A stretch of DNA of 64,000 nucleotides from Clostridia bacterium (lineage in GTDB: Bacteria; Bacillota; Clostridia; Christensenellales; UBA1242): contig JAZNFA010000004.1 in NCBI GenBank assembly GCA_045588915.1, positions 131,707 to 195,706 on the forward strand, written 5' to 3'. This document shows positions 9,086 through 56,945 of this stretch, piece by piece. The position numbers were made by a program, and so were the translations under genes. A model generated the notes under the pieces. That model did not search any database. It saw only the letters and a program-made list of their open reading frames with translations, and was not told the DNA's origin. Each line of letters opens with the position of its first letter. Position 1 is the stretch's first letter.

Positions 9086-9102
9086 TGCCTACCCCTCTAC
9101 AA

Positions 9103-25762: not shown

Positions 25763-25815
25763 TCTAGAATTAACTGTAACACGAAGCATATTTTTTGTAA
25801 AAGCAAATTATCAAC

Positions 25816-34548: not shown

Positions 34549-35344
34549 TGACTGCCTTCACAATTTGGTCTAATAGTTTTGCTTTTGGTCGCACAAAAGG
34601 TTTTTCTAAATTGAGAATACAACTTGAATCGTAATCACATAATTTTAAGAAATTATCAACACGGTCCATACGTCCGACGTTTTCGGCTTTGTGTGCATCA
34701 CTGTTAATGACGAACTTCACGCCCATCGCAACCATTCTTTCAAAATCGACAGGACGGAAACTAACTTTTTTGTTATTTAATTCCATCGCTGTACCACGTG
34801 CCACACAAGCTTTCGCCACTTCAATTACATCAACACGGAAGTAACGATTTGGATGCGACAAAATATCAATATTGTTTTTTTCAATCACATTGACAACAGC
34901 TTTGGTATTCTTGCGAATTAAACTTTTCGGTGTCCAGTTAATACCGATGCGACGCATCGCAAACCAAAACATATTTGGTAAATAGTATGTAAAGAACTGC
35001 CAGAATTTTTTGGGTTGCACTGACATATGAATACCACAAACTAAATAATCATATAAACGACGTTCATCGGCGGCGATATCAATATCACCATCCATACCGA
35101 CAACATTACATTCAACGCCGTAGAAAGTTTTGATATTATAAGTTTGCCCCGAACGTAATACTTGCGCTTTGTTCAATAAAGCATTTTCGATACGTTTCTT
35201 TTTGTTGCGCGCACGATAATGTGCGTGGTCAGTAATCCCGACCTCGGATAAGCCACGCTTCTTTGCTGCTGCTACATTTTCATCTATTGTATTTTGTCCA
35301 TCGCTATCTAAAGTGTGTGTATGATAATCACCATAAACTTTCAT
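34532..35344 (-). CDS. PHP-domain metal-dependent phosphoesterase
   Basis: YGDYHTHTLDSDG, ITDHA, SDAH motifs. Confidence 0.75.
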   Translation of the reverse strand: MKVYGDYHTHTLDSDGQNTIDENVAAAKKRGLSEVGITDHAHYRARNKKKRIENALLNKAQVLRSGQTYNIKTFYGVECNVVGMDGDIDIAADERRLYDYLVCGIHMSVQPKKFWQFFTYYLPNMFWFAMRRIGINWTPKSLIRKNTKAVVNVIEKNNIDILSHPNRYFRVDVIEVAKACVARGTAMELNNKKVSFRPVDFERMVAMGVKFVINSDAHKAENVGRMDRVDNFLKLCDYDSSCILNLEKPFVRPKAKLLDQIVKAVNEKKS

Positions 35345-35421: not shown

Positions 35422-37221
35422 ATGTGTAAAATTAATGGATTTATCAATTTTAACTATACTAAAAAGCAAGCCAAAAACATCATTACTCAAATGAGTCAAC
35501 AAACAAGTGTTATACCACACGAACTCAAAATTTTTAATCATAAAAAAGTCTGTCTCGGCGACCAAGCGTTACACTATACTTATCGTGGTCAAACATATAC
35601 CATTGTTTACCAAGGCGAACTGGACAACCTAACAGCTTTATGTCTTTACCTAAAAAAACACCAAATTCAAATTAAAGACAAAACTGATGCTGAGATTATT
35701 GTTAAACTTTATGCTTTACTCGGCGCAAAAATGCTTCATAAAATACAAGGTAATTTTGCTTTTGCGATTTATGAAAACACACAACAACACCTCTTCCTTG
35801 CACGTGACCAGTTGGGAATTATGCCCTTGTTCTATGCTTTAAATCAAAATAGCTTAGCTTTCTCAGCAAAAATTAGTGCGCTTTTTGTACATCCAACAAT
35901 TAGGCCGTGCGTTAATCTTGACGGCTTACGTGAATTGTTTGGCGTTTGTCCAGCACGAACACCCGGCAAAACCGTTTACAAAAATATTTATGAAATTAAA
36001 CCTGGCGAATATGGGTACTGGCAAAACGGTAAACTAACCACAAAAACTTACTTTAAATTTAAAAGTCAACCTCACACTGACAACGTTAAGACGACCACAA
36101 CGAAGATAAGAAAAATGCTAACAAAAGCTGTCCATCAACACAACAGCAGTCAGCATCGTGTTGGTTTAATGCTGAGTGGTGGTTTAGATTCCAGTGCAAT
36201 CACGGCTTTAGCAGCACAAACACAAACAAACTTAAAAACTTTTTCCGTAGATTATGTCGGCAATCAAGAAAATTTCAAACCAACAGACTTTTCACCGTCA
36301 CGTGACAATTATTACATTGACTTAGTTGCCAAACGATACAAAACGCAACACAACTATCAATTGTTAAATTCAGCAGACCTATCCTTGACACTACACGAAG
36401 CTTTAATGGCCCGTGATTATCCGTCAATGGCTGATATTGATAGTTCTCTCCTGCTTTTTTGCCGAGCGTTAAAAGAACACATTGATGTTTGTTTGAGTGG
36501 TGAATTTGCTGACGAAATCTTTTGTGGATATCCGTGGTTTTACCGACAAGACACACATCAAGCAACAACTTTCCCGTGGGCAATTGATTTAACTGTACGA
36601 GAAAATACTGTTGCCAAACACTTAAAAAGCAAGTTGCAACTGAAAAAGTTTGTGACACAATCTTTTCATAATGCTGTCGCCGAAGTTCCACTTTGCGCAA
36701 CAGATACACCAGCCGACCGTCAGATGAAAATATACAGTTATTTAACCATGCGTTGGTTTGGTTTAAATTTGTTAGAACGTGGCGAACGTATGGCGACACA
36801 ATGCAACTTGCAAATTCGTATGCCGTTTACCAACCTGAAACTAGCACAATATGTTTATAACATTCCGTGGACAATCAAGAATCATAATCATCAAGAGAAA
36901 GGAATTTTACGTACTGCGATGAAAGACCTTTTACCGACGGAAATTCTTAATCGTAAAAAATGTCCTTACCCAAAAACAGTCGACCCCATTTATACTCATT
37001 TAATCGAACAACGAATACGCGCCTTACTGACCGACGAAGAACATCCCGTTTGGCAAATTGTCAATATGGATTACGTCAGTCAAGTCTTAAACGATGCAAC
37101 AACTCATACCACACGCCCCTGGTTTGGTCAGCTTATGCAACGCCCACAATACTTGGCATTTATTTACCAAATTGCAATGTGGTTGGTTGAATATCAAATT
37201 AAATTGGACTTGCCTAACTGA
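35422..37221 (+). CDS. Asparagine synthetase (glutamine-hydrolysing) family protein
   Basis: N-terminal Met-Cys (Ntn amidotransferase), PP-loop SGGLDSS, 599 aa. TAAAAT lies 5 nt before the ATG. Confidence 0.8.
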   Translation: MCKINGFINFNYTKKQAKNIITQMSQQTSVIPHELKIFNHKKVCLGDQALHYTYRGQTYTIVYQGELDNLTALCLYLKKHQIQIKDKTDAEIIVKLYALLGAKMLHKIQGNFAFAIYENTQQHLFLARDQLGIMPLFYALNQNSLAFSAKISALFVHPTIRPCVNLDGLRELFGVCPARTPGKTVYKNIYEIKPGEYGYWQNGKLTTKTYFKFKSQPHTDNVKTTTTKIRKMLTKAVHQHNSSQHRVGLMLSGGLDSSAITALAAQTQTNLKTFSVDYVGNQENFKPTDFSPSRDNYYIDLVAKRYKTQHNYQLLNSADLSLTLHEALMARDYPSMADIDSSLLLFCRALKEHIDVCLSGEFADEIFCGYPWFYRQDTHQATTFPWAIDLTVRENTVAKHLKSKLQLKKFVTQSFHNAVAEVPLCATDTPADRQMKIYSYLTMRWFGLNLLERGERMATQCNLQIRMPFTNLKLAQYVYNIPWTIKNHNHQEKGILRTAMKDLLPTEILNRKKCPYPKTVDPIYTHLIEQRIRALLTDEEHPVWQIVNMDYVSQVLNDATTHTTRPWFGQLMQRPQYLAFIYQIAMWLVEYQIKLDLPN

Positions 37222-39314
37222 TAGAAAGACTTGTCTAATTTATCAAAGCCATCAGCATCAAATAACCTTGAATTTAAAAATATTGAATCATAAACACGGT
37301 CAACGGTTGGGGAAATCTCATCCAGTTGTGCTTGGGTTAAATTTACGCCGTTAAAAGTAATAAAGTCTAATGTTTTCCAAATGCGCCATTCGATAAATGG
37401 TTCACCTGTAATAATATCAATGCGATCGCTTGATACTTCATAACCAACAGCACCCCAAGTGTAACCCGTTAAATACGCGACACCAACAGATGGAGCATTG
37501 TCAAAAATACTGCGTCCATAAGTTAATTGTTGATCAGTTTGAATGCCAAATAAACTGCAAATTGTTGGATAAATATCCATTGTTGAAGTGAAACGATTCA
37601 ACGTAATTCCACAGTTTGCAGGTGTTGCTTGTACAGCGTTTTCGCCTTGAGTTGTCCCGTTAGTCGTAATTTGACGAGGATTATAAACAATGAATGGTGA
37701 ACGGTTTCCTGCCAACTCGCGTGGGTCTTCACTTTCAGGTTTTAAGAAATCAGGGTTAGTATAATAATAATGGTCACCGAACATCACTATTGCTGTGGTT
37801 TCAATCAGCTTTTTACCTGGATGTAATTCATCAGGTGTCTTTTTCAAATAATCAATTAAAGCACCAAAACCTAAATCAAAACTATAAGTGCCAACTAAAT
37901 AATTTTTTGCTCTTGCCACTGCATCTTTATTTTTTGATGACAAAACCGGATAAATTTCAGTCAGTCTTTCCCAATTAGATTGTTCTTCAACGTACTCAAA
38001 TTCTTCAGGATAGTAACTAGGGAAATCAAAACGGAATGGACCAACAGCATGGGTTGAACCACTGATAATATAACTATAGAAATTCTGATTCTTGGGTGCA
38101 ATTTTGGCAAGATTGTTGGCAAACAATAATTCGTCAGCATTTAATGCGCAATGTTTCGGATAATAAACATCAGTATATGTTGAATAATCATTGAATTTAT
38201 CAAAGCCAAGTATATCTTCGAAAACCCCGTATCGGTTATAACAATCACCATGCCAATTATGGAAAGTTTGCGTTGCGTAGTTACTTCTTTCAAAAATATT
38301 GGCTAAGGAATGAGGCGCAACGACATCACCATAATTATTCCAATATTCTTTACCCATAGGATGCATCCCAGTTTGACTGATATAATCCGTAAAGCAAGTA
38401 CGTTCAACACTGTAATACCCGTTGACTTCCACGCAACTTTCACGTAAGAATTTGGTTAAGTTTGGCATCGTAATCGGATTGATCGCTTCACGTTCAAAAG
38501 TTTCCATCAAGACGGTAATTAAATTATAACCTTCACCTAAAACTTCATTTTCATCCAAAACAAAAGTATTCGGTGTGAATTCTTCCCTTACTTCCAGATC
38601 CATCACATCTGTTGTATTTGTTTTAGCGCCCATGAGTGCTAACAAATTATTCAGGTAAAAACTGTATGAACCGAAAGTTTGCAAAGTTACAATACGATTA
38701 CTGAAAGTATCGTAAATAAATTTTTGATTGCGCGATAAACTGACAAAATGATTGTTTTTGTAACTTGGTAAGCCTGAGTACACCATCGTATAACTAAAAA
38801 TACTAACAAAAGCTAAAATACCACACAAGGTAGCACGTAAATTAAATTGATAGCGATAACCTTTTGGTGTACGACAATACCACATAATCGCAACAATGCT
38901 GGCAATATAAAAGACAAGTAACGTAATAATCGGAATTAAAAAAGTCAAATCTAAAACAACGGAGCCAGCATTCGCAAAAGCTGTCGTAATTGTCTTTAAT
39001 GTTTCCAAAGAAAAAATTTCATTACAAGTTTGATATGCCGTAATATTGGAAATTGTGGTAAATAACTGCCACCCGATTAAAAGAGAGCAAATTACTGTTT
39101 GTAGCCATTTTTGTTGAATGAGTGCAACAATCGTTGCGATAATTAAAAGAACCGACAAGCTAAAAATATAAGCTGACGGGAAGGCAAAATTCATAATACT
39201 AAACATAATAATTTCAAGGAAAACACTCGCGACAATAAACAAGGTAGGTATATAAAGAAAGCTAATCTTTTTATACAAAGGAATGTAGGGAACTTCGCGT
39301 GTTTTGAGTTTCAT
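37194..39314 (-). CDS. LtaS-like polytopic sulfatase-fold (phosphoglycerol/phosphoethanolamine-type) transferase
   Basis: About 5 N-terminal TM helices plus an extracellular alkaline-phosphatase-superfamily domain (VLMETFEREA..., ERTCFTDY). Start at 39314 (MKLKTREV). Confidence 0.6.
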   Translation of the reverse strand: MKLKTREVPYIPLYKKISFLYIPTLFIVASVFLEIIMFSIMNFAFPSAYIFSLSVLLIIATIVALIQQKWLQTVICSLLIGWQLFTTISNITAYQTCNEIFSLETLKTITTAFANAGSVVLDLTFLIPIITLLVFYIASIVAIMWYCRTPKGYRYQFNLRATLCGILAFVSIFSYTMVYSGLPSYKNNHFVSLSRNQKFIYDTFSNRIVTLQTFGSYSFYLNNLLALMGAKTNTTDVMDLEVREEFTPNTFVLDENEVLGEGYNLITVLMETFEREAINPITMPNLTKFLRESCVEVNGYYSVERTCFTDYISQTGMHPMGKEYWNNYGDVVAPHSLANIFERSNYATQTFHNWHGDCYNRYGVFEDILGFDKFNDYSTYTDVYYPKHCALNADELLFANNLAKIAPKNQNFYSYIISGSTHAVGPFRFDFPSYYPEEFEYVEEQSNWERLTEIYPVLSSKNKDAVARAKNYLVGTYSFDLGFGALIDYLKKTPDELHPGKKLIETTAIVMFGDHYYYTNPDFLKPESEDPRELAGNRSPFIVYNPRQITTNGTTQGENAVQATPANCGITLNRFTSTMDIYPTICSLFGIQTDQQLTYGRSIFDNAPSVGVAYLTGYTWGAVGYEVSSDRIDIITGEPFIEWRIWKTLDFITFNGVNLTQAQLDEISPTVDRVYDSIFLNSRLFDADGFDKLDKSFYQLGKSNLI

Positions 39315-39361: not shown

Positions 39362-40402
39362 TTATTTGGTGTAGCCGTTGGGATTTTGCGAATAGAAACG
39401 CCATAAATCGCGTGCCATCGCATCTAAGTCAAATTCTGCGTGCCACTCTAATGCTTTTTCGGCGTGACTTGGGTCAGCATAACACTCGGCAATATCGCCA
39501 GCGCGACGTGGTTTAATTTGATATGGAATTTCACGGCCGGCTGCTTTTTCAAATGCATGTAAAACATCCAAAACACTGTAACCGTGTCCTGTACCTAAAT
39601 TATAGGTATGAACCCCAGTTTGTTCTACCTTAGCAATTGCTTGCAAGTGCCCTTGTGCTAAATCACAAACGTGAATGTAATCACGCACACCTGTTCCGTC
39701 TGGTGTTGGATAGTCATTACCAAAAACTTGCAAGAAAGGTAATTTACCGGTTAAAACTTGTGCAATATAAGGCGTCAAATTGTTTGGAATACCTTGTGGG
39801 TTTTCACCAATCAAACCGGATGGATGTGCACCAACTGGATTGAAGTAACGCAAAATCACAGCCGTCCAAGTTGGGTCAGCTTTACATAAGTCACGTAAAA
39901 TATCTTCAATCATTAACTTAGTTGCACCATAAGGATTAGTTGTACGCAAAGCACAATCTTCGGTTAAAGGTAAAGTTTCTGGGTTTCCATAAACTGTGGC
40001 ACTTGATGAGAAAACAATTTTCTTGCAACCAGCAGCTTCCATCACTGCCAATAAAGATAAAGTTCCATTTAAATTATTTTCGTAATAACGTAATGGTTGG
40101 GCAACACTTTCACCCACAGCTTTCAAAGCTGCAAAATGAATTACCCAATCAATTTGATGTTTTTCAAAGACTTCGGCTAATTGAGTACGGTTACGTAAAT
40201 CAATATGATACCAAGGAAAAGTTTTTCCAGTAATTTCGGTAACACGTTCCAAACTAATTGGCGAACTGTTAACAAAGTTGTCAACGACAACAATGTCATA
40301 ACCTTGTTCAAGTAAATTAACACAGGTATGACTGCCAATATAACCAGCACCACCCGTAACTAAGACTGTTGTTTTTTTATTTGTTTTTTCTGTTGTTTTC
40401 AT
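39362..40402 (-). CDS. galE: UDP-glucose 4-epimerase
   Basis: GGAGYIGSH, YGATKLM (YxxxK), typical GalE length and C-terminus. Confidence 0.9.
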   Translation of the reverse strand: MKTTEKTNKKTTVLVTGGAGYIGSHTCVNLLEQGYDIVVVDNFVNSSPISLERVTEITGKTFPWYHIDLRNRTQLAEVFEKHQIDWVIHFAALKAVGESVAQPLRYYENNLNGTLSLLAVMEAAGCKKIVFSSSATVYGNPETLPLTEDCALRTTNPYGATKLMIEDILRDLCKADPTWTAVILRYFNPVGAHPSGLIGENPQGIPNNLTPYIAQVLTGKLPFLQVFGNDYPTPDGTGVRDYIHVCDLAQGHLQAIAKVEQTGVHTYNLGTGHGYSVLDVLHAFEKAAGREIPYQIKPRRAGDIAECYADPSHAEKALEWHAEFDLDAMARDLWRFYSQNPNGYTK

Positions 40403-40420
40403 TACATATAGTTTAATCAG

Positions 40421-41080
40421 TTAATGATTTGCTGGCAACTTATATTGCATAAAAAATTGAAACCAAGTAACAAGGACAGCACTTAACAACAAGGCACCCA
40501 AAACATCAGTGAACCAATGATAACCACAACACAAACGAGCAACGACCCCCAGCACCAACATCAACCATCCACAAACAAGTAAAATACGACGCCAAGTGAG
40601 TGATTTAATTCCCTGCCGACACAGACACAACATCAACGGCCACAATGTAGCAACCAACAAAATATGAGATGATGGATACGAGACTTCAGCAATACCATCT
40701 AACACAATGGGACGATAGTTAATAACAACAAATTGGAACAACAGATAACATAAGCCTAAAACAATAATTGTGATATCAAATACCCACCAACGCAATGTCA
40801 ACGCACGCAAACTTTTACCACGCAGAATAATCACAAATTGCCAAACTAACATTCCGACTAGTGCCAGTATAGTAACACCTACAATAATATCCGAAATGAG
40901 ATGCCAAACGCTTTGTACACCTAATAAATCACGCCACCATAAGTTGATGGTTGCCCAACCAATTGGACCAGTAGCAGTACTTTGGACGTCAACACAAAGC
41001 AAAGTAACCGTTAAGACAACAAAGAAAATCGTGCAACTTAATGCCGTAAAAAACCATCCCCACTGCTTACGTGTCAACAT
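40421..41080 (-). CDS. PAP2-family lipid phosphatase (possible undecaprenyl-diphosphatase)
   Basis: YPSSH and GYHWFTDV motifs in a multi-TM protein. Start is uncertain: ATG at 41080 or GTG at 41140. Confidence 0.65.
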   Translation of the reverse strand: MLTRKQWGWFFTALSCTIFFVVLTVTLLCVDVQSTATGPIGWATINLWWRDLLGVQSVWHLISDIIVGVTILALVGMLVWQFVIILRGKSLRALTLRWWVFDITIIVLGLCYLLFQFVVINYRPIVLDGIAEVSYPSSHILLVATLWPLMLCLCRQGIKSLTWRRILLVCGWLMLVLGVVARLCCGYHWFTDVLGALLLSAVLVTWFQFFMQYKLPANH

Positions 41081-41084
41081 TAAC

Positions 41085-41753
41085 TTAGTTTGCCTCAGGT
41101 GCGTCGGTTTGATACTGTTCAACTGTTGCAACTTGTGCACGACGTTTTTTCACAAAGTGCATAATTAAACGATAGACAATGTAGACAGCAATTAAAGCCA
41201 AGAAGATAATTAAGAAAAGACGACTAAATTGTGGGAACACTTGGCAAAGTGATGCAATGATAAGACCACAAACGGTATTACCCACAACTACAACAGCACA
41301 AATTGCCCAGAAGTTCAATCCTAATAAAACAGCAAAACAAGTACCCGTCCAAACACCAGTACCAGGAGCAGGGAAAGCGACAAACAAGAAAACTGCTAAC
41401 ATTTTTAACCAAAACGCACGTATTGAACTTTTGGTTTGATTTTCTTCTTTCATTTTATCGGAACGTTTTGCAACGTCGCCCACGATAAAATCAAGAATAG
41501 CTTTGAAAAATTTTTTAGTCTTCAACCAATTATAAATTGGACGGAAAACCAAAGCTAAAACAGGAACGACCAAGCAACTACCGAACAAAGCCCAACCAAA
41601 TGACTGCCAAACATTCAAGGCTGAATCACCCCAGAACTCAGTATCAATACCCAGCGTAATACCACCTTTTAATTCCAACAAAGGCAACAACGAAACAAAT
41701 ATCGTTGCTAAAATCGAATTACTTCCAAAAATTGCAGTTAAAATTTCTCCCAT
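41085..41753 (-). CDS. Polytopic membrane protein, COG2426 / small multidrug-export-like
   Basis: LPLLELKGGITLG and FPAPGTGVWTG motifs. AAGGAG SD. Confidence 0.45.
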   Translation of the reverse strand: MGEILTAIFGSNSILATIFVSLLPLLELKGGITLGIDTEFWGDSALNVWQSFGWALFGSCLVVPVLALVFRPIYNWLKTKKFFKAILDFIVGDVAKRSDKMKEENQTKSSIRAFWLKMLAVFLFVAFPAPGTGVWTGTCFAVLLGLNFWAICAVVVVGNTVCGLIIASLCQVFPQFSRLFLIIFLALIAVYIVYRLIMHFVKKRRAQVATVEQYQTDAPEAN

Positions 41754-41762
41754 ATCTTCTCC

Positions 41763-43244
41763 TTATTCTTCTTTAATTGCACCAAAACGACGATCACGAC
41801 TTTGATATTCTAATAATGCAGTATGTAAATCTTGCTTACTGAAAGCAGGCCAATGAACTTTTGGGAAATAAAGTTCAGCGTACGAAACTTGCCATAACAT
41901 AAAATTACTTAAACGTTGTTCGCCACTGGTACGAATTAAAAAATCTAATAATGGTTGTTCACTGGTGTATAAATATTTTTGAATAGTGGCACGGTCAACT
42001 TGTGGTGCTAAATTATCAGCTAACATCAAATTCACAGCACGCACTAACTCATCTTGTCCACTGTAATTGATACCTAAGTTTAAAATAAATTGCGTTTCAT
42101 TTTTAGTTGCTTCAAGAGCTGCCGTAGCGTTTTTTACCAATTCAGGTGGGAACTTAGTATAATCACCCATAATATTCAAACGTACGTGTGGATATTTTTT
42201 AACGAAGTCATTCGCTTTTAAATATTTGGTAAAATACTTAAAGAGATAATCTAATTCAGTTTGTGGACGGTTCCAGTTTTCAGTTGAAAAAGCGTAAATA
42301 CTAACAATTGGAATTCCATATCCATAAAAGCATTCTTTAATAATGACATCTAAATTTTTAACACCGTGCTCGTGACCTTTGGTACGTGCCCAACCACGCT
42401 CTTTCGCCCAGCGACCATTACCATCAATAATAAAACCAATGTGCTGTGGTAATTTTTTCAATTCAGTCGCCATAAGCTTTTCTCCTTTTGTAATTTTTGG
42501 CTGCAACGCTTCACTGGTAGTTACAATACCATTTTGTGCAATGATAGTTTTGGCACGAGCCATTCCTAGTTGATATTGTTCTTCCGTAATATACTTATGT
42601 TTCAATAAGTAATCGGCATAGTAATACTCACGACGGCTTTGCGCTGCACCACTGGTCGCACTATCACTACGAAAGAGTACCACAAAAAAGGTTTTAATGA
42701 CAATCATTAAATCACGCCAGAATGAAATTTTACGTTGATAGGTTAAATGTTTTTCAATAACCTCTTCCCAACTTGCCGAGCTTCGACCACCTGACACTTG
42801 CGCCAAGCCGGTTAGTCCTGGTCGTACACGGTAAATGCTTAATTCTTCGGCAGTCCAAAAAACAACATCTTTCACTAAAACTGGACGAGGCCCAACAAAG
42901 CTCATTTCACCACGCAAAATATTCACCAACTGTGGTAATTCATCCAAACTAAAACGACGTAAAAACTTACCGAATGCTGTAATCCGTGCGCCGTCAGGAA
43001 GTAAATTTCCTTGCGCATCGGTTTTATCATTCATAGTCCGAAATTTGTAAATTTTAAAAACTTGACCGTTGCGTCCTGGACGAACTTGACTAAAGAAAAC
43101 TTTGCCGTGAATAAACATTTTGGAACAAAGCATCAAAACAAGAAACAAAGGCAATAAAGTAATTAACAAGAGCAAAGCAAAAAGAACGTCTAAACTACGT
43201 TTAAAAAAGCGTTCATAAAAAGTTTGTTGCCCTGTACGTTGCAT
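41763..43244 (-). CDS. uppS: Fusion: monotopic phosphoglycosyl transferase (bacterial sugar transferase) plus undecaprenyl-diphosphate synthase
   Basis: The N-terminal ~200 aa show KRSLDV...PGRNG..F.IYKFRTM...DELPQL.N.L.GEMS.VGPRP. The C-terminal ~235 aa show IIDGNGRWA, FSTENWNRP and RTSGEQRLSNFMLWQ. One open frame, with an internal ATG at 42473 preceded by AAGGAG. Confidence 0.85.
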   Translation of the reverse strand: MQRTGQQTFYERFFKRSLDVLFALLLLITLLPLFLVLMLCSKMFIHGKVFFSQVRPGRNGQVFKIYKFRTMNDKTDAQGNLLPDGARITAFGKFLRRFSLDELPQLVNILRGEMSFVGPRPVLVKDVVFWTAEELSIYRVRPGLTGLAQVSGGRSSASWEEVIEKHLTYQRKISFWRDLMIVIKTFFVVLFRSDSATSGAAQSRREYYYADYLLKHKYITEEQYQLGMARAKTIIAQNGIVTTSEALQPKITKGEKLMATELKKLPQHIGFIIDGNGRWAKERGWARTKGHEHGVKNLDVIIKECFYGYGIPIVSIYAFSTENWNRPQTELDYLFKYFTKYLKANDFVKKYPHVRLNIMGDYTKFPPELVKNATAALEATKNETQFILNLGINYSGQDELVRAVNLMLADNLAPQVDRATIQKYLYTSEQPLLDFLIRTSGEQRLSNFMLWQVSYAELYFPKVHWPAFSKQDLHTALLEYQSRDRRFGAIKEE

Positions 43245-43300: not shown

Positions 43301-43336
43301 AAAAAAAATTGCCAAGTTAATTTGGCAAATCTTTTT
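43301..43336 (-). terminator. Rho-independent terminator after the Cys-rich gene
   Basis: ttgccaa / ttggcaa stem followed by T8 on the minus strand. Confidence 0.75.
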
Positions 43337-43355: not shown

Positions 43356-43646
43356 TTAACACAAGGTGCGTGGACATTCCATACAACGACCTTGCCCACA
43401 GAGTGAACTTGGTTCAACTGGTTTGGTTACGTCCTTTTCAACAGTTGGTTGTTCAACTACTGGTTCAACTGGTTGTTGTTCCACAACTTCGGTATCCTTC
43501 TTGTGGTGACGAATGACTTCAACACTGTCGTATTTAACAGCGCAGTATTCCTTATTGCCTTCACATTCATGGTCTTTTAAACAACAAGAGTCACAATTAT
43601 ATTCAGGGTTAAAAAGTCTCAATTTTTTACGAATTAATGTATGCAT
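43356..43646 (-). CDS. Small Cys-rich protein (96 aa) with a Pro/Glu/Val-rich linker
   Basis: AAGGAG SD, 27 nt downstream of paralog 1. Cys clusters are CDSCC..C..7..C at the N-terminus and C..4..C..C..4..C at the C-terminus. Confidence 0.6.
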   Translation of the reverse strand: MHTLIRKKLRLFNPEYNCDSCCLKDHECEGNKEYCAVKYDSVEVIRHHKKDTEVVEQQPVEPVVEQPTVEKDVTKPVEPSSLCGQGRCMECPRTLC

Positions 43647-43673: not shown

Positions 43674-44813
43674 TTATTTTGATTTTTCATTGTTGGGATT
43701 TGTTGGTGGTAGTTCATTCATTTTAGTCTCCTTGTATTTCTCCCATTCACTATCATTATGGTGAAAAATTTCGGATAGACCAATTTTTTTGCGTTTGCCA
43801 ACTGCATAGATGTACCCCCAACTGGTACTGGGTAAACTATTTAATAGTTTGCGTTTTTTAGCATTGTCGACAATTTCTTTGGCACGAAAACCAATGTATA
43901 ACGACAAAGGTTTATGATTTAGTTTACTCAATTTCTTTTGATTTTGACAATCATTATTAACCAGCTTGCGATAACGTTTTTCATAGTAATCTAGTTTTTG
44001 TAGATTATGATACGAAAGCGACCGACAACCCGTATACATTGCCTCAAGTTCAGGTTTGCCCTGAATAAACTGATTGAAGTATGCTACTTCACGCTTCTCT
44101 TCCCAAGCGTCATAATGTTCGGTTTTCATTTTCGCAATGCGTTCTTGATACCGTGCCGATTTAAGTTTAATGAAATCAATTACGTGTTGTGGATAATATG
44201 TATTTTCATAAGTCTGTTGAAGTGCATCTTTGTACCACCAAAATTTTTTCTTTTCGACAAGTTTTTCAGCTTCTAACAACGGCATACCAATTTCTAAATT
44301 TCGCATTTCACTAATAATTTTCGAACGGAAAGCTATATCATAATCTTTGATTTGATGAAAATTATTTGCTGCAGAATGATTCTGCAAATCTTTGATTTGT
44401 GCATAAACAAGTAATTCTTGATACTGGTTTAATTTTTTTTGGAATAATTCGTTGTGATAAATGTCTTCGACAAACTTGCCAATGTTATTGAAGTTCAAAT
44501 ACTGATTAACTAAAAACTGACGATTGATTGCATAATATTTGACAGCATTTTCATTGACGTATTGCCCTAGATTTTTTTGAAGATAAAACGCAGCAATGTA
44601 TTTTTTCAACCAAGGTTCATCATATAAATGTAGTAGCAAATTTTCGGCCGTATAAATATCTTGAGGTTTTTGTTTATGTTTTTGCAAGCTCCTTAAAAAA
44701 TCGGTCTCAAAGTTTTTCGTATATATGGCGTAAGGGTCTCTTACCAAAACTTCAATAATCCGTTTTTTTGCACTTTCAGCAATAATTTCATAAACGCGTT
44801 CAGCAACAACCAT
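43674..44813 (-). CDS. Uncharacterised basic protein, tandem family member 1 (379 aa, longest)
   Basis: Shares LLLHLYDEPWL, DYD..FR and ENTYYP motifs with the four genes upstream. Confidence 0.7.
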   Translation of the reverse strand: MVVAERVYEIIAESAKKRIIEVLVRDPYAIYTKNFETDFLRSLQKHKQKPQDIYTAENLLLHLYDEPWLKKYIAAFYLQKNLGQYVNENAVKYYAINRQFLVNQYLNFNNIGKFVEDIYHNELFQKKLNQYQELLVYAQIKDLQNHSAANNFHQIKDYDIAFRSKIISEMRNLEIGMPLLEAEKLVEKKKFWWYKDALQQTYENTYYPQHVIDFIKLKSARYQERIAKMKTEHYDAWEEKREVAYFNQFIQGKPELEAMYTGCRSLSYHNLQKLDYYEKRYRKLVNNDCQNQKKLSKLNHKPLSLYIGFRAKEIVDNAKKRKLLNSLPSTSWGYIYAVGKRKKIGLSEIFHHNDSEWEKYKETKMNELPPTNPNNEKSK

Positions 44814-44818
44814 AACGT

Positions 44819-44848
44819 ATTATAGAGAATTCACTACCCCAAAGTCAA
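44819..44848 (-). promoter_or_regulatory. Putative promoter: TTGACT-N18-TATAAT-N5-ATG (family member 1)
   Basis: Complement of 44843-44848 and 44819-44824. ATG at 44813. Confidence 0.55.
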
Positions 44849-44897
44849 GATAGGTATTTTAAATTATTGGTCATAATCAAATGAATTTGATAAAAGT

Positions 44898-44931
44898 GCA
44901 AAAAACTTGCCACCAAAAGCAAGTTTTTTTT
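44898..44931 (-). terminator. Rho-independent terminator after family member 2
   Basis: acttgc / gcaagt stem flanked by A and T runs. Confidence 0.7.
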
Positions 44932-44948
44932 AGATAATAAATACTCGA

Positions 44949-45971
44949 TTATTTTGTTAGATTTTGCTCATCGGTAATTCCCAATTGTTCATTTTTGGCT
45001 TTGAATGATTTTAAACCTTTCAAAACCGTATTTTTTAAGCTACGACGTTTTTTCGTAGACAACATCATATTGCGCATTTTTTCATAGAACTTGAGCTTTG
45101 CATCTAACTTAATCAAATCAAGTTTGTTCATTTTCATTGTTTTAGTTGCTAAACCTAAGTCGTCGATGATTTGGTAATGCATTTGATAATAATCATATTC
45201 ACGACGTTGCAACCAAACTTCTTGATGTGCTTGTTTTAATTTCATCAAAGCTTTCCACCACAAAGAAAATTCTTGTCTATCTTTAATCACTTCTGCCAAT
45301 GGATAATATTTATTTTCAAAAGCAATAATCATCGATTTTTTACGCCATAAATCTGCTGATTCTTCCAAACCAACTTCAACATCATATTTGAAGACTCCAT
45401 TACTCGACATAACTTCCATAACATCCCTACGGAAGTTAAGGTCAAAGTAACTACTATTTTTCTTCATAAATGGCGTAGTAGAATCTTTCATCAAAGCATT
45501 TGATATACCAGCCGTAATCATATACTCTGCTTGTGCGCCAGTCAGTGCACGTACAAATTGACGGCGAATAGAAGCAAATGCAATTGAATTTTTCACAAAG
45601 TTACGTAACTCTCGCATAGAAATTTTAGCGTTTGGTCGATGTTTTTTCATCACTTCGCTGACATAATTGATTAACCAATTATCATCATACAAATGCAATG
45701 GTAAATATTCGACTGTATAAACATTTTTAATTTTTCGATCAAGTTCTTTAAATGAATGATTGAAAACGATGTTTCTTACCTTTTCCTTTGGAAAAATATG
45801 ATGAAGCTCAGCACATAACTCACCGTGCTCTTGCATATGTTTCGCATTTTTTTCAAGTCTCTCGCATTCCTTGTAATAAGCAACACGTTCCTCATAAGTC
45901 ATTCTTTCGACTTCTTGCGTATAGTATTTTTTTCTATACTCAAACATTTGATTCATACTTACAAATTCCAT
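44949..45971 (-). CDS. Uncharacterised basic protein, tandem family member 2
   Basis: LPLHLYDDNWL, AFENKYYP, WLQRREYDYY, GLATKTMKM. The second ATG (45971) lies 6 nt from the -10. The track start is 45974. Confidence 0.7.
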   Translation of the reverse strand: MEFVSMNQMFEYRKKYYTQEVERMTYEERVAYYKECERLEKNAKHMQEHGELCAELHHIFPKEKVRNIVFNHSFKELDRKIKNVYTVEYLPLHLYDDNWLINYVSEVMKKHRPNAKISMRELRNFVKNSIAFASIRRQFVRALTGAQAEYMITAGISNALMKDSTTPFMKKNSSYFDLNFRRDVMEVMSSNGVFKYDVEVGLEESADLWRKKSMIIAFENKYYPLAEVIKDRQEFSLWWKALMKLKQAHQEVWLQRREYDYYQMHYQIIDDLGLATKTMKMNKLDLIKLDAKLKFYEKMRNMMLSTKKRRSLKNTVLKGLKSFKAKNEQLGITDEQNLTK

Positions 45972-45977
45972 CATAAA

Positions 45978-46007
45978 ATTATAAATGGGAGCATCTTACA
46001 AAGTCAA
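45978..46007 (-). promoter_or_regulatory. Putative promoter: TTGACT-N18-TATAAT-N6-ATG (family member 2)
   Basis: Complement of 46002-46007 and 45978-45983. The upstream GGGTATTGACTTTG is nearly identical to the member 3 promoter. Confidence 0.55.
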
Positions 46008-46037
46008 TACCCCCAGATAAAATTCATTCAGTTTTTA

Positions 46038-46955
46038 TTACATTGTACGATCATCAAATTGCTTTGGCTTATTGCGACAAGCTTGCAACAGTACAACACT
46101 TGCTTGCTGATACTTAGCTAATCGTTTATCTAAACGTTGTAATTCCTTAGGCTTCATTTCCATTGTTGGTGCAAATAAACCGATCTCTTTTAAAATACTT
46201 TGATGTTCTTGACCATAATCATAGATACGACGTTGCATCCAAACTTTTTTGTGTGCCTGTTGAAAGTGTTGTAAAACTTTCTTTTGTGATTTGGTTGGAT
46301 GAATAAATTTAGTTTTACTAATCGGGTAACATTCATTTTCAAAAGCAATTTCCATACTTTCTGGCAACCATAATTGACTATTCTTTTCTAAAAAGACTTC
46401 GACTCTATGTTCGTCAATACCCAACTTTGTGAACGAGCGTATAACTTGTTCACGGAATTGCTTATCATAATCCTTAATATATTGATAATCATAAGGACAC
46501 ATTCCATCGATTAAAGCGTTAGGCACTGGATTACGTAACATATGATTTAGTTGGATGCTCATTAACCTTTCAATATAGTTATTGCGTTCAATTTCAAACA
46601 ATGGTGATGCTTGGACAAAGGCATTTGCGTTCGCAATCTTGAATTTGTTTTTAAATTCTTTACTTTCAGCAACCTGTGTTAAACACTTAGCCAACCATTC
46701 ATTATCATACAAATGGAATGGTAAAAAATCAGAAGTGTACATTGTTGTTGGTAATTCTTCAGGTTTCGCAAACTCTAAACCTATCAAAGTGCGTGCAATG
46801 TCGTGTTCTTTCGGAAACATTTGACAGATACAATCACACAAAGCTTTAAGCTGTGCAGTCTCCTTATCAATTAAGGCAGTGTCTTTTTGAACTCTTTTCG
46901 AGTGTTGTTTCATACGTTGAGTATTAAAAATATCTGATAATTTTTTTAGTTTCAT
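46038..46955 (-). CDS. Uncharacterised basic protein, tandem family member 3
   Basis: LPFHLYDNEWL, DYDKQFR, AFENECYP, WMQRRIYDYG, GLFAPTMEM. ATG at 46955; the track start at 46982 is a TTG inside the promoter. Confidence 0.7.
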   Translation of the reverse strand: MKLKKLSDIFNTQRMKQHSKRVQKDTALIDKETAQLKALCDCICQMFPKEHDIARTLIGLEFAKPEELPTTMYTSDFLPFHLYDNEWLAKCLTQVAESKEFKNKFKIANANAFVQASPLFEIERNNYIERLMSIQLNHMLRNPVPNALIDGMCPYDYQYIKDYDKQFREQVIRSFTKLGIDEHRVEVFLEKNSQLWLPESMEIAFENECYPISKTKFIHPTKSQKKVLQHFQQAHKKVWMQRRIYDYGQEHQSILKEIGLFAPTMEMKPKELQRLDKRLAKYQQASVVLLQACRNKPKQFDDRTM

Positions 46956-46962
46956 CACATTT

Positions 46963-46992
46963 ATTATATATGATTGCAACAAGCAAGGTCAA
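46963..46992 (-). promoter_or_regulatory. Putative promoter: TTGACC-N18-TATAAT-N7-ATG (family member 3)
   Basis: Complement of 46987-46992 and 46963-46968. Confidence 0.55.
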
Positions 46993-47012
46993 TACCCACG
47001 GCTAATTTTGGA

Positions 47013-47569
47013 TTACATTTCGTAATTAACGACATTATCATAAATTAAAGAACCAAGTCTATTGATTTTATTTTTAACACTGCGCGCTTGACCAGGTGTA
47101 AGTTTCATATTTTGTGTCGCTACACCTAATTCATCAATGACGTGTTTATGTTTTAGGTAATATTTATATTCACGATAAATGAACCAATTTTCCTTAAAAG
47201 TTTTTTCTAATAGTTTATTTTGCGATGATTGCATCACATAATAATCGTCATTTTTAACGTGTAAGTAATAATAAAAATCAATCGCTTTTTTCACTGACAT
47301 CTTGCTTTTTTTGATTAGCAATCCCACTGATATGTTTAACCATCCAATCTTTATTGGATAAATGCAAAGCTACAATATTATTTTCTACTTTCTTCGTCAG
47401 GGAAAATCAAAGGCAATAATTGAAATAACCGTTCAAATTCTAATTTTTTATTTGTATCATCTTTAAAAGGAATTGAATCATTTGTAAACTTATCAAGAGT
47501 TAATTCTTTGACTTGCTGTGGTTTTTGTTGATGACAAAAACTGCTTTTTAAATTGTGGAGTTTCGGCAT
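47013..47569 (-). pseudogene. Decayed family member 4 (frameshifted, central region deleted)
   Basis: Three frames carry collinear family segments: the N-terminus (LFQLLPLIFPDEE), IVALHLSNKDWMVKHI, and the C-terminus (FIYREYKYY, GVATQNMKL). The AFEN.YYP region is missing. An A7 tract on the coding strand (47306-47312) sits at one frame junction. Confidence 0.7.
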
Positions 47570-47571
47570 TC

Positions 47572-48519
47572 TTAAATACTTTTCTCTACTTCACTTTTGT
47601 TTTTAACTTTGTTTTTTTCTTGACTTTGTTTTAACAAAGCAACACGTTCGTCATTAAAACCAGTAGATTTTTTAATACAATCAAAATAACTAAATTGACT
47701 CATACCCATATTTTCAGTGAAAGTTCCTGCTTTTTTAATCACTTTAAAATGATTCCCACCATAATAAAATTCATAATGTTTTAACCATTCTTCGCGATGC
47801 TTTTTATGCAATTCACACCACTTCATATAAAGATTATCATTCTTTGGTTCGTCAGCTTGTGGATAATAAAATTCGTCAAAAGCACGTATCATATTTTGTC
47901 GGCGCCATAAGTCTGCATTCTTTTCTAAATTAAATTCAGCAGTAGATCGTTTTAACCCTAAAATTTTCATACAAAAAATAACTTTGTCGCGGAGAATTTC
48001 ATCATAAGGAACAAAACAACGACGAACTTTTTTATCACAAAAAGGATCGGACACGGTGGTATTTGCAATAAACTCTTTAACAAAACTATCTTGATAATTA
48101 CTTAAACCTTGATTAAATTCAAGTGAATCTCGGATAAAGTTTTTAACGACAGTACGACTGTAATTAAATTCAGGAACTTCCTTTTTAACAACAGCAATAA
48201 CATGCTCTGCAAGAAATTCATAATCATTCATATGTAAAGGCAAACGCTTGACAGGTTCTTTTTGTGTTTTTTCAAAATTCTTAATTTCTTTTTTAACAAT
48301 TTCCACCATGCGCTTACGTTGTTCTACGTTAAAGCTTTTGTCTTCAAGCAAAACATCTTCAATATTAAATTCATGGAAAAACTGACAAATGTTCACTACG
48401 GAATCATTATCCATTGTGAAAATTTTATCAAGGTTTTCGATAATAACTTTAAACTGTGGTTTTAATTTTGTGCTTGTTACAGTTGTACTTAGTTTCGTTA
48501 ATTTTTTTGCATCAGCCAT
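47572..48519 (-). CDS. Uncharacterised basic protein, tandem family member 5
   Basis: LPLHMNDYEFL, PYDEILRDKV, AFDEFYYP, WLKHYEFYYG. Possible TTGACA-N18-TATACA-N8-ATG promoter at 48528-48557. Confidence 0.7.
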   Translation of the reverse strand: MADAKKLTKLSTTVTSTKLKPQFKVIIENLDKIFTMDNDSVVNICQFFHEFNIEDVLLEDKSFNVEQRKRMVEIVKKEIKNFEKTQKEPVKRLPLHMNDYEFLAEHVIAVVKKEVPEFNYSRTVVKNFIRDSLEFNQGLSNYQDSFVKEFIANTTVSDPFCDKKVRRCFVPYDEILRDKVIFCMKILGLKRSTAEFNLEKNADLWRRQNMIRAFDEFYYPQADEPKNDNLYMKWCELHKKHREEWLKHYEFYYGGNHFKVIKKAGTFTENMGMSQFSYFDCIKKSTGFNDERVALLKQSQEKNKVKNKSEVEKSI

Positions 48520-48553
48520 ATATTATATGTATATAACTTTCTGAACACAAATG

Positions 48554-49783
48554 TCAATATGCAGTTGAAAAATTTTCTGTCATATCTTGGTAAAATTTGT
48601 CTAAATTCTTCACATATTGTTGAATAAAGGATACTTTTAGCTCTTCAGTTGTTTCAGCATCAATATTTGTTAAATCCAATGTTTGATACTTTACGATTTT
48701 TTTACAAATATGGAAAATGTTAGTATTATCAATTAAGTTTCGGTTAAGTTGATTTTTTTCTTTATTTGGTCGTTTCATAAATAAATGGACATTGGTTGCA
48801 CTGTGGTCGCCACTGGTATAAAGCGTATTGTTCATTCTTTCTAATTCGGCTTTATCTTCTGCCAATTGTAAGCCACCTGTTTCGTGGTCGGCTGTAATCA
48901 TCACGACGGTATCATCACGCCCAGCACAGAATTCATAAACAGCTTCAATCATTGCGGCGAAATACGCAACTTCATGCAGAGCATTAACCAATTGATTTCC
49001 GTGACTATATTTATCGATCCAACCATTTTCAATCATTAAACAAAAACCATTTTCGTTATCAAGATAATTTAAAACGTTTTTAATTAAAGCTGGGAAATCT
49101 ACCCAATCTCGACCAGGATTAGTCTGCTCGTGATTATATGGTGATAGCAAATCAGGAAACATTGCAATGTATTTTTCGTTTGGGTTTAAAGTTTCAGGAA
49201 AATCATCTGTTGTATTCGAAAAATGATATCCATTACGATAAAAACCAATATAGCTATTATCATACTCTGCCGCACGAGCACCAATCAAAATATCAATACC
49301 ACTGTTAATTTGGTCTTGCACAATTTCGTCAAGATTATTACGTGATTTTGTATGTGCCGAATAAGCACCTGGGGTTGCTCCGTGTAAGGTATCTGATGTC
49401 AAAATGCCAGTTTTCTTACCTTGTTTTTGTGCAATTTCCATTAAGTTTTCAATGTCTTTTCTTTCGTGCCAACCAATTTCGCCATTATTAAATTTTTGAC
49501 CGGTTGCCAACGCACTTCCGGATGCCGCACTGTCTGTGACCGGACTGTCTTTCGAGTGTGTAGTAACATCACACACATAATCGTCTTCAAAAGCGTATTG
49601 ATCAACATCAAAATAGGTTTTAGCATTCTTTAAATGATTCGGACCAAAACCATCGCCAATCATGACGATGACGTTTTTAATTTCGCCATGGATATTATCT
49701 ATTTGTGGTTTTGGTGAGCATCCCACAAAGCTCATCATCACAACCAATAAACACGATAACGTAATGGCAAACTTTTTTTTCAT
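48554..49783 (-). CDS. Lipoprotein alkaline phosphatase (PhoA family)
   Basis: Lipobox SFVGC. GDGFGP, TDSAASGSALATG (nucleophile Ser) and ADHETGG motifs. Confidence 0.85.
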   Translation of the reverse strand: MKKKFAITLSCLLVVMMSFVGCSPKPQIDNIHGEIKNVIVMIGDGFGPNHLKNAKTYFDVDQYAFEDDYVCDVTTHSKDSPVTDSAASGSALATGQKFNNGEIGWHERKDIENLMEIAQKQGKKTGILTSDTLHGATPGAYSAHTKSRNNLDEIVQDQINSGIDILIGARAAEYDNSYIGFYRNGYHFSNTTDDFPETLNPNEKYIAMFPDLLSPYNHEQTNPGRDWVDFPALIKNVLNYLDNENGFCLMIENGWIDKYSHGNQLVNALHEVAYFAAMIEAVYEFCAGRDDTVVMITADHETGGLQLAEDKAELERMNNTLYTSGDHSATNVHLFMKRPNKEKNQLNRNLIDNTNIFHICKKIVKYQTLDLTNIDAETTEELKVSFIQQYVKNLDKFYQDMTENFSTAY

Positions 49784-55892: not shown

Positions 55893-56945
55893 TCAATGAT
55901 TCTCCTTTTTTTGTAAGCACGCAATACCTGGTAAGGTTGTACCTTCGACAAATTCCAAGGCTGCACCACCACCAGTGGAAATATGTGTGAATTTAAAATC
56001 CTTAACAGCCGCCGCCGTATCGCCACCACCAACAATACTGATAGCATCACTTTGGCTGATGATTTGTGCAATAGCGTGCGTACCACGCGCATTTTCCGGA
56101 TTCACATCGAACTGTCCTAATGGACCATTCCAAAAGATAGTACGACTGCTTTCAATAATCGGACGCCAAGTTTCCACAGTTGCCATTGAGATATCTAAAC
56201 CTTGGTCGGGTGCAATGTGAATCTCTGCACGATGTTGCTTACCGTCGTCTTGCCATTCTTGTGCAATTTTACCACCAACCAAAACGTGGTCAGCTGTATC
56301 GGCCAACTTCAATGCCAAAGGCATTTTATCACTGGCTTTTTTACCACCAATAATCACCGTAAACGGTCGTTGTGGTTGATGCGTAATTTGACTTAGATTT
56401 TCAATTTCACGTGCCATTAAAAAACCAGCATAAGCAGGTAAATAACTTGCCACACCAACTGTGCTGGCGTGCGCACGGTGAGCAGCGCCAAAGGCATCAT
56501 TCACAAAAACATCACCGAGTTGTGCTAATTGTTTTGCAAATTCAGGCTCGTTCGCTGTTTCAGCTTTCGTAAAGCGTGTATTTTCTAACAACAAAACTGC
56601 GCCGTTCGGCAATGCTGCAACTTGTGCTTCAACATTCGCACCAACTGTTTCGGTAGCAAATTGTACTTCCACCCCAGCTAACAATTTTTGCAAATGCAAA
56701 TAAACTGGCTGTAAAGAATATTGTGGCTCTGGCTTACCGTCTGGTCGCCCAAAGTGACTGCACAAGACAACTTTCGCCCCACGTTCTAAACAATAACGGA
56801 CGGTTGGCAAACTATCGACGATACGTTTATCGTCGCTGATTGAACCGTCAACAGCCAACGGTACATTGTAATCAACACGCATTAAAACACGTGTCCCTGC
56901 CTTAATTGGCGCATCAACAACTTTTGCAAAATTTATATTTTCCAT
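55893..56945 (-). CDS. pgk: Phosphoglycerate kinase (short, 350 aa)
   Basis: RVDYNVP, SHFGRP, NDAFGAAHRAHAS, GGKKASDK, WNGPLG, GGGDTA, STGGGA. Confidence 0.88.
   Translation of the reverse strand: MENINFAKVVDAPIKAGTRVLMRVDYNVPLAVDGSISDDKRIVDSLPTVRYCLERGAKVVLCSHFGRPDGKPEPQYSLQPVYLHLQKLLAGVEVQFATETVGANVEAQVAALPNGAVLLLENTRFTKAETANEPEFAKQLAQLGDVFVNDAFGAAHRAHASTVGVASYLPAYAGFLMAREIENLSQITHQPQRPFTVIIGGKKASDKMPLALKLADTADHVLVGGKIAQEWQDDGKQHRAEIHIAPDQGLDISMATVETWRPIIESSRTIFWNGPLGQFDVNPENARGTHAIAQIISQSDAISIVGGGDTAAAVKDFKFTHISTGGGAALEFVEGTTLPGIACLQKKENH

Follow-up and report, generated by a model that had tools for sequence, protein, structure and literature searches.

The window analysed here is a 64,000-nucleotide (nt) stretch of contig JAZNFA010000004.1 from an uncultured Clostridia bacterium (positions 131,707 to 195,706), and the subject of this report is an array of related minus-strand genes that it carries at 43674-48519. 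The array comprises four intact paralogs (M1, M2, M3 and M5) and one dead copy (M4); next to M1 lies the gene of a small protein with eight cysteines, termed Cys8. These genes are located as follows (L-numbers, here and below, denote related loci).

47572-48519, minus strand: M5, family member of 315 amino acids (aa) and first gene of the array; open reading frame, family profile hidden Markov model (HMM) E = 2.3e-65
47013-47569, minus strand: M4, pseudogene, delimited by tblastn with the intact L003 ortholog and by nucleotide alignment
47387-47569, 47290-47394 and 47031-47294, minus strand: the fragments of M4, each in a different frame
46038-46955, minus strand: M3, family member of 305 aa; open reading frame, HMM E = 1.3e-84; the L003 ortholog is 81% identical
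44949-45971 (or to 45974), minus strand: M2, family member of 340 aa (341 aa from the ATG at 45974); open reading frame, HMM E = 1.2e-84; orthologs in L001, L002, L003 and L008
43674-44813, minus strand: M1, family member of 379 aa; open reading frame, HMM E = 2.5e-43; orthologs in L001 and L003
43356-43646, minus strand: Cys8, 96 aa; AGGAG ribosome-binding site, co-transcribed with M1

The remnants of M4 correspond to residues 1-63, 87-121 and 221-305 of the intact 309-aa L003 ortholog; about 100 residues of the conserved core are deleted, and the family HMM matches the C-terminal fragment only. Judged from these lesions, M4 is a true pseudogene. The stop codon of M5 abuts the start of M4, and the two genes are also adjacent in L001, L002, L003 and L011. 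Throughout the 64-kb window, matches to the family HMM occur at these five places and nowhere else. An earlier note on this DNA had placed five genes at 43674-48519 and had described the fourth as decayed; open reading frames were found exactly there, and the decay of M4 is confirmed by remains in three frames.

Similarity among the array proteins was readily detected in BLASTP comparisons (M2-M3, E = 2.6e-41 with 31% identity; M2-M5, 2.8e-23; M1-M2, 4e-12; M1-M3, 1e-10), and the C-terminal part of M4 matches M2 with E = 5e-8. By these values the paralogy of the array genes is far beyond chance. M1, which has a long, basic C-terminal extension, is the most divergent of the paralogs. Family alignments of 26 and of 109 sequences were used to examine conservation. 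The motifs that had been listed as shared on first reading all fall on conserved columns of both alignments. Twelve polar residues are kept in all paralogs and in distant relatives, with 80-99% conservation among the 109 sequences (M2 numbering): H94, D97, D178, R182, E200, E204, R211, R258, Y262, Y263, H266 and T277. The N-terminus of the family is also strongly conserved (M-K-L-x-K-L/F-x-x-x-F), and is placed by the structural model described below in a confidently packed helix. The last residues of the C-terminus form a semi-conserved pattern ([E/D/G/N]-x-[T/S]-[L/I/K]) on a disordered tail of low confidence, perhaps serving as a short docking motif.

No membrane segment or signal peptide was found in the array proteins, the highest Kyte-Doolittle average over 19 residues being below 0.8, in agreement with what had been claimed before. 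The family had also been described as lysine-rich and basic. This is correct for the copies in the window, which contain 12% Lys (6.8 +/- 2.4% in the other proteins of the window) and have pI values of 8.9-9.5, the C-terminal tails of M1 and M2 being strongly basic (net +12 and +10). It does not extend to the family as a whole: averaged over the 109 members, net charge amounts to about +1 at either terminus and about -1 for the core, and in any one segment the net positive members make up only 40-60%. Since the family mean is about zero, basicity is local to the window copies and not a family trait. Similarly, the AT-richness reported earlier is real, with a GC content of 0.32 in the family genes versus 0.378 +/- 0.026 in the other genes, although glnS, given then as about 45% GC, measures 38.7%. 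GC at third codon positions is hardly lower in the family genes (0.27 versus 0.30 +/- 0.035, within one standard deviation), so that the AT-richness comes mainly from the abundance of Lys, Asn, Tyr, Phe and Ile in the proteins. A foreign origin, at which the AT-richness might hint, was rejected as its cause on these third-position values and on synteny in relatives.

The following promoters and terminators were located around the array genes.

48528-48557, minus strand: candidate M5 promoter, TTGACA-N18-TATACA, ending 8 nt before the ATG; read by eye, below the threshold of the scan
46963-46992, minus strand: M3 promoter, TTGACC-N18-TATAAT, ending 7 nt before the ATG; promoter scan
45978-46007, minus strand: M2 promoter, TTGACT-N18-TATAAT, ending 6 nt before the ATG at 45971; promoter scan
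44819-44848, minus strand: M1 promoter, TTGACT-N18-TATAAT, ending 5 nt before the ATG; promoter scan
44900-44929, minus strand: intrinsic terminator 3' of M2; sequence scan
43309-43328, minus strand: intrinsic terminator 3' of the Cys8 gene, closing the M1-Cys8 unit; sequence scan

The promoters of M1, M2 and M3 are the top three sigma-70-type matches between 43000 and 49000, each agreeing with the consensus at 11 of 12 positions; the candidate of M5 is weaker, and its TTGACA shares bases with the stop codon of the alkaline phosphatase gene. By their match to consensus, most of the array promoters are of near-consensus sigma-A type. The transcription units can be read as M5-(M4 pseudogene), M3, M2 and M1-Cys8, M4 being assigned to the transcript of M5 because it abuts the stop codon of that gene. 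As there is no room for a Shine-Dalgarno site, the first transcribed base would be the A of the ATG or one beside it. The geometry of the M1-M3 promoters thus implies leaderless mRNAs.

The earlier note had correctly seen that these genes have promoters of their own, with TTGAC(T/C)-N18-TATAAT at distances of 5, 6 and 7 nt from the start codons of M1, M2 and M3, but the arrangement is not a speciality of the array. A TANNNT box is found 4-9 nt before the ATG, with no Shine-Dalgarno site, in 17 of 39 window genes (versus 13% of random ATGs); another 14 of the 39 have a Shine-Dalgarno site only, and operon-internal genes of the window carry GGAG-type sites. The strict promoter pattern is also present at the LtaS-like gene (ATG 39312-39314) and at a PHP-domain gene (ATG 35342-35344). 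Examples of genes with a leaderless-type start (TANNNT box, no Shine-Dalgarno site) are:

2355-3155
20686-21660
35422-37221
37194-39314
39362-40402
41763-43244
55893-56945
58347-59252

In related loci, TTGACx-N17/18-TATAAT-N5-10-ATG likewise precedes family genes in L001, L002, L003, L010, L011, L012 and L013, and operon-internal family members, such as those of L012, have AAGGAG sites in place of the start-abutting promoter. The start-abutting promoters thus look like a genome-wide habit. In a survey of 209 Firmicutes genomes, only 56 had leaderless genes, which made up 4.2% of genes on average and 16.6% at most (PMC3160421). In view of these low figures, widespread leaderless-type starts such as those apparent here would be unusual, an organism-level oddity for a Firmicute.

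The promoters of M2 and M3 share GGGTATTGAC, of which exact copies occur in the window solely in these two promoters and at one coding site within M3. This supports the suggestion, made on first reading, that the promoters were duplicated with the genes. An inverted repeat of the form GGGGG...CCC brackets the -35 hexamer of the M2 promoter, with a G-run (GGGGGTA) just 5' of the -35 and a C-run (CCC to CCCCC) just 5' of the -10 (45978-46015). The same repeat is kept at M2-type promoters of L001 (~1584-1626), L002 (~9955-10000), L003 (~9957-10000), L010 (~1485-1532), L012 (~8913-8959) and L013 (~9950-10000). Because it is conserved at such promoters in divergent genomes, it may be an operator.

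The gene of Cys8 begins 27 nt beyond the stop codon of M1, has a canonical AGGAG and ends at the terminator at 43309-43328; its description in the earlier note as part of one transcript with M1 is well supported by this short gap and the shared terminator. The protein consists of an N-terminal cluster (C-x2-C-x6-C-x6-C) and a cluster at the very C-terminus (C-x4-C-x2-C-x4-C), joined by a variable linker rich in Pro, Val and Glu. All eight cysteines are invariant, and their pattern suggests two metal sites: Cys8 is probably metal-binding. The linker is encoded by a 27-nt tandem repeat (1.9 copies, 43437-43488), and its length differs among homologs by gain or loss of repeats. No signal peptide was found in Cys8 (maximum 19-residue Kyte-Doolittle value -0.19), and its structure was predicted with low confidence (predicted local distance difference test, pLDDT, 42). 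The database homologs amount to just 13 unnamed clusters. Cys8 closes the array in seven loci (the window, L001, L002, L003, L010, L011 and L012), and is absent from the lineages of L013, L014 and L016. The last gene of L013/L016-type arrays has a C-terminal extension (P0133, L013 10001-11239; P0093, L016 10001-11224), and a YW(D/N)xHQP motif occurs three times in the extension of P0133 and once in that of P0093; both belong to lineages without Cys8. No Pfam domain was found in the extensions of the long members P0040, P0101, P0125, P0133 and P0093. Fusion of a Cys8 module to long family members was considered, using P0125, and was rejected, the HMM of the cysteine protein matching no protein of the family.

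Relatives of the array proteins were sought by exhaustive profile search of 1.84 billion representative proteins. This yielded 314 clusters at E <= 1e-3, of which 260 remain at <= 1e-10 and 73 at <= 1e-30; the majority measure 280-370 aa. It took the exhaustive HMM search to reveal the family, since a word-indexed homolog search recovered just 2-4 relatives. Locus searches with shallow alignments gave one genome locus, two metagenome loci and no viral one. The sole name attached to relatives in their sources is 'hypothetical protein [Clostridia bacterium]', and all those that could be traced come from metagenomes or from metagenome-assembled genomes (MAGs) labelled 'Clostridia bacterium', several of them from herbivore guts; among them are a MAG from water-deer caecum, a contig from a giraffe metagenome (98% identity to M2), and assemblies of ENA, Logan, JGI and NCBI MAG origin. 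Phage, plasmid and IMG/VR collections contain no members, and a phage or plasmid origin was rejected. Judged from these sources, the searches show a family confined to a single lineage of uncultured 'Clostridia bacterium' genomes. The class A RNase P RNA encoded in the window agrees with a place in Clostridia and not in Bacilli or Mollicutes.

Four other loci (L001, L002, L003 and L011) hold the array in the same chromosomal slot, with the alkaline phosphatase gene upstream of it and genes for a Bac_transf-UppS fusion, Sm_multidrug_ex, PAP2, an epimerase and an LtaS-like protein downstream. The remaining loci listed here have other settings.

L003, same slot: members of 318, 309, 305, 367 and 398 aa, then a 101-aa Cys protein
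L011, same slot: members of 322, 339, 289, 351 and 303 aa, then a 99-aa Cys protein
L002, same slot: members of 321, 316 and 335 aa, then a 79-aa Cys protein
L001, same slot: a cut M5, members of 292, 333 and 354 aa, then an 87-aa Cys protein
L010, other setting: at least 3 members and a Cys protein
L012, other setting: 7 members and a Cys protein
L016/L017, other setting: 8 members
L013, other setting: at least 12 members, one of them split
L014, other setting: a single member with a C-terminal extension
L006, other setting: a fused double-domain protein

In L003 an extra 0.7 kb lies between M2' and M1'. This stretch encodes an unrelated, interrupted small membrane protein, and the idea that it is a decayed paralog was rejected.

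In a neighbour-joining tree the members fall into five orthogroups (M1, M2, M3, M4 and M5), whose left-to-right order is kept across genomes; the expansions of L012 and L013 are independent. The duplications are old, because each paralog has positional orthologs in other genomes. L002 lacks M1 and M3, M4 is dead in the window and intact elsewhere, and copy number per locus ranges from 1 to at least 12. By this pattern of loss and expansion, the set is evolving by birth and death. The comparison of copy number and synteny proposed in the earlier note thus finds order conserved, with copy number and pseudogenes varying between genomes. As judged from the tree and from gene order, these comparisons show that the array consists of differentiated paralogs, old and conserved in position, from a family not described before.

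Evolutionary rates were estimated between the window and its closest genome, L003, which is collinear with it at about 80% nucleotide identity. Protein identity is 49% for M1, 49% for M2, 66% for M5 and 81% for M3, versus 82-98% for most flanking genes (65% for the sulfatase/LtaS-like gene), the array proteins diverging 3-4 times faster than their neighbours. The same is apparent in 300-nt sliding windows, where nucleotide identity falls to a trough of 58-69% over M1-M2, against 85-90% over M3, 74-77% over M5 and 77-99% over most flanking windows. Nei-Gojobori estimates of dN/dS are 0.30 for M1, 0.28 for M3 and 0.21 for M5 (dS is saturated for M2), and 0.04-0.19 for flanking genes, with PAP2 at 0.33; no whole-gene signal of positive selection was seen in this comparison. 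On these estimates the array genes are constrained and functional, under selection that is purifying but relaxed. A family either old or fast-evolving, and rapidly diverging, had been suspected on first reading; it is both, the orthogroups pointing to ancient duplications and the rates exceeding those of neighbours, and the dN/dS check suggested there, when run on these orthologs, indicates purifying selection. A separate observation concerns positions 39600-42300 (epimerase, Sm_multidrug_ex and part of the UppS fusion), where stretches of 96-99% identity to L003 stand in the ~80% background and so suggest recent recombination between related lineages around the array.

An AlphaFold2 model of M2 was built on the 109-sequence alignment (mean pLDDT 92.1, pTM 0.83). 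It contains helices only, with a globular part that ends near residue 273, a helix spanning some 47 residues (284-330) and a low-confidence tail; the predicted structure is thus a compact all-alpha domain of about 280 residues followed by a long C-terminal helix and a disordered tail. Foldseek found no match to this model in PDB (best E = 0.64, TM <= 0.22) or in BFVD (best E = 0.51). The family profile reached no better than E = 0.13 against PDB sequences, the window members no better than E = 0.016 against Pfam, with scores far under the cut-offs, and in Pfam, NCBIfam and PHROGs scans of the 109 members no family was matched by more than two of them. PADLOC returned nothing meaningful, and Rfam nothing within the array. 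The description of the family as unrecognised, given in the earlier note, is therefore borne out in all six resources (Pfam, NCBIfam, PHROGs, PADLOC, PDB and BFVD), also by the Foldseek comparison recommended there, and by the same six the family and its predicted fold appear to lie outside all described kinds.

Several particular candidates were rejected. RNPP receptors (Rap, Rgg, PlcR, NprR and PrgX) have a TPR-like superhelix, with or without an N-terminal helix-turn-helix (HTH), and a secreted cognate peptide is encoded beside each receptor. The array resembles cassettes of this kind (Rap-Phr, Rgg-SHP, PlcR-PapR, AimR-AimP) in its all-alpha, cytoplasmic paralogs of ~300-380 aa in Firmicutes and in the small downstream reading frame; here, however, there is one such frame per array and not per gene, and its product, of 72-118 aa, lacks a signal peptide and has eight cysteines. 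Neither a TPR nor an HTH match was found in Pfam, and RNPP receptors and AimR are absent among the Foldseek matches. HEPN RNases gave no match in Pfam or Foldseek, and the sole R...H pair in a conserved helix, R258-x7-H266, lies outside the R-x4-6-H spacing. Terpene-synthase-like and ferritin-like proteins, suggested by inspection of motifs, are unsupported by motif spacing or by the fold search.

What the paralogs do can be proposed only tentatively. The most likely possibility seems to us a cytoplasmic family with one shared biochemical activity, or one site for a ligand or partner, and with specificity differing from paralog to paralog. A shared catalytic or binding site is proposed because the same dozen polar residues are kept while all other positions, and the number of copies, drift. 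All paralogs would share this activity or site and would differ in what they recognise or act upon, forming a birth-and-death multigene family at work inside the vegetative cell, with Cys8, probably metal-binding, as a shared partner in its sub-lineage. Several points weigh against this proposal. No enzyme or ligand-binding fold was recognised, so the case for a common site is one of conservation, and the conserved charged residues of all-alpha proteins can be structural salt bridges. Not every paralog can be needed, as M4 is dead in this genome, and Cys8 cannot be essential to the core function of the family, as the L013, L014 and L016 lineages lack it. The promoters, the leaderless starts and the vegetative expression are, moreover, all read from the DNA only.

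Tandem soluble paralogs, each with a strong constitutive-type promoter of its own, would also be expected of a standing repertoire of cytoplasmic immunity or defence proteins, each neutralising a different toxin variant or phage factor. The variable copy number (1 to at least 12) with pseudogenes, the protein divergence at 3-4 times the rate of neighbours, the sharp M1-M2 identity trough between close genomes and the gut-community habitat agree with such a role. In these respects (tandem soluble cytoplasmic paralogs, variable copy number, decayed copies and fast evolution) the array resembles the EsaG (DUF600) arrays found at the ess locus of Staphylococcus aureus and, in gut Bacteroidales, the orphan immunity islands. 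It differs from them in having no sequence or fold relation to them, no adjacent toxin or secretion genes, a fixed order of orthogroups and many invariant polar residues. No toxin, secretion-system, Rhs, LXG or phage gene adjoins the arrays in 10 loci, and no match to an immunity family was found in Pfam or PADLOC. Orthogroups and their order are conserved across divergent genomes, and whole-gene dN/dS (0.21-0.30) is well under 1. The family-wide conservation of about a dozen polar residues would be unusual for immunity proteins, whose interfaces diversify. We consider this explanation unlikely. The earlier note had read the array as effectors, immunity proteins or an antigenic-variation repertoire, and that reading lacks support: there is no export signal, the duplications are ancient and ordered, dN/dS is 0.2-0.3, the same housekeeping slot is occupied in four genomes with no toxin, secretion or mobile-element gene beside it, and no member occurs in the phage, plasmid or IMG/VR collections.

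An ancient, order-conserved set of paralogs could alternatively supply the subunits of a hetero-oligomeric structural assembly (cytoskeletal, scaffold or spore-associated), with Cys8 as a metal-dependent or disulfide cross-linker. In every locus the M5 and M4 genes abut or nearly do so, which suggests translational coupling; the long C-terminal helix with its semi-conserved tail, the high aromatic content and the Tyr-rich conserved motifs would suit such a role. The Cys-rich partner recalls Cys-rich coat or exosporium proteins, and some relatives have sporulation neighbours (SpoIIIAH, GerE, GerM and SspI near the member in L014, SpoIVB next to the array in L016), although these sit among ordinary housekeeping genes and their presence may be coincidence. 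Clusters such as cotVWXYZ in Bacillus and cdeC/cdeM in Clostridioides likewise combine lineage-specific paralogs with a Cys-rich small protein. Spore coat and exosporium genes, however, are expressed from mother-cell sigma-E or sigma-K promoters (with or without GerE), whereas those of the array are of sigma-A consensus type; no homology to these clusters was found, and no sporulation gene was seen among the window genes scanned. A dead M4 and a very variable copy number also fit poorly with a machine of fixed stoichiometry. On balance an assembly of this kind appears improbable.

We give a similarly low probability to the idea that a new fold stands at the core of an unrecognised system in a single lineage of uncultured gut Clostridia, made of expandable all-alpha paralogs whose function has no described counterpart, with Cys8 as metal-binding partner and the G-run/C-run repeat (G5/C5) as an operator on some members. 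The function of such a system might be a specificity-diversified intracellular repertoire for defence or recognition, or the proteins might be exported by way of the conserved C-terminal tail. Many families of unknown function that lack database homologs exist in uncultivated taxa. The present family resembles those described in surveys of such taxa (occurrence only in MAGs and metagenomes, no relative in Pfam, NCBIfam or PDB, synteny, purifying selection, a confident fold), and differs in its ordered arrays, which reach at least 12 paralogs, and in the constant association with Cys8 in one sub-lineage.

The window copies, with their pI of 8.9-9.5, 12% Lys, basic tails on M1 and M2, strong promoters and probable abundance, could be taken for nucleoid-associated or RNA-binding proteins, but basicity is not shared across the 109 members and no HTH or other nucleic-acid-binding domain was detected; nucleic-acid binding is therefore considered quite improbable. 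Export as effectors, the C-terminal tail being recognised by a non-classical secretion route and possibly by the VirB4-like ATPase and giant-protein pair at 6464-15486, is very improbable: the semi-conserved tetrapeptide on its low-confidence tail and a VirB4/TraG-like ATPase in the same window are consistent with it, but that gene (6464-9085), for which the earlier note had suggested testing a link to the array, lies 35 kb off without relaxase, coupling protein or channel genes around it, is unlinked to the array in related loci (nothing VirB4-like occurs within 10 kb of the arrays in eight others), and the arrays themselves have a conserved, housekeeping-like gene order and are under purifying selection.

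If the model is right, the family of several hundred clusters has a confident fold for which PDB, BFVD, Pfam, NCBIfam, PHROGs and PADLOC contain no relative. Maintained by one clade of uncultured gut Clostridia in ordered arrays that reach a dozen paralogs, it would then represent lineage-specific cell biology that is invisible to current annotation. Its practical importance is modest on present evidence, but as a target it is well defined, with short soluble proteins, a high-confidence model, clear candidate-site residues and a small partner, Cys8.

Other features of the window were also recorded. The VirB4/TraG-like P-loop ATPase (873 aa, 6464-9085, minus strand) adjoins a 2127-aa protein without a Pfam domain (9103-15486, minus strand). 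The pair is surrounded by housekeeping genes (P-type ATPase, ychF, glnS, hflX), a relaxase, a coupling protein and other type IV secretion genes being absent nearby, and is by its setting an isolated two-gene module. Downstream of the array, at 41763-43244, one 493-aa protein fuses Bac_transf (phosphoglycosyl transferase) to UppS (cis-prenyltransferase), a fusion kept in all related loci. A 345-aa zeta-toxin-domain protein (56998-58035; Pfam E = 6e-34) adjoins the glycolytic pgk-tpi-pgm genes. Two cytidylate kinase paralogs (929-1591 and 25139-25789), two adjacent SurE paralogs (1588-2358 and 2355-3155) and a class A RNase P RNA (Rfam) are also encoded in the window.

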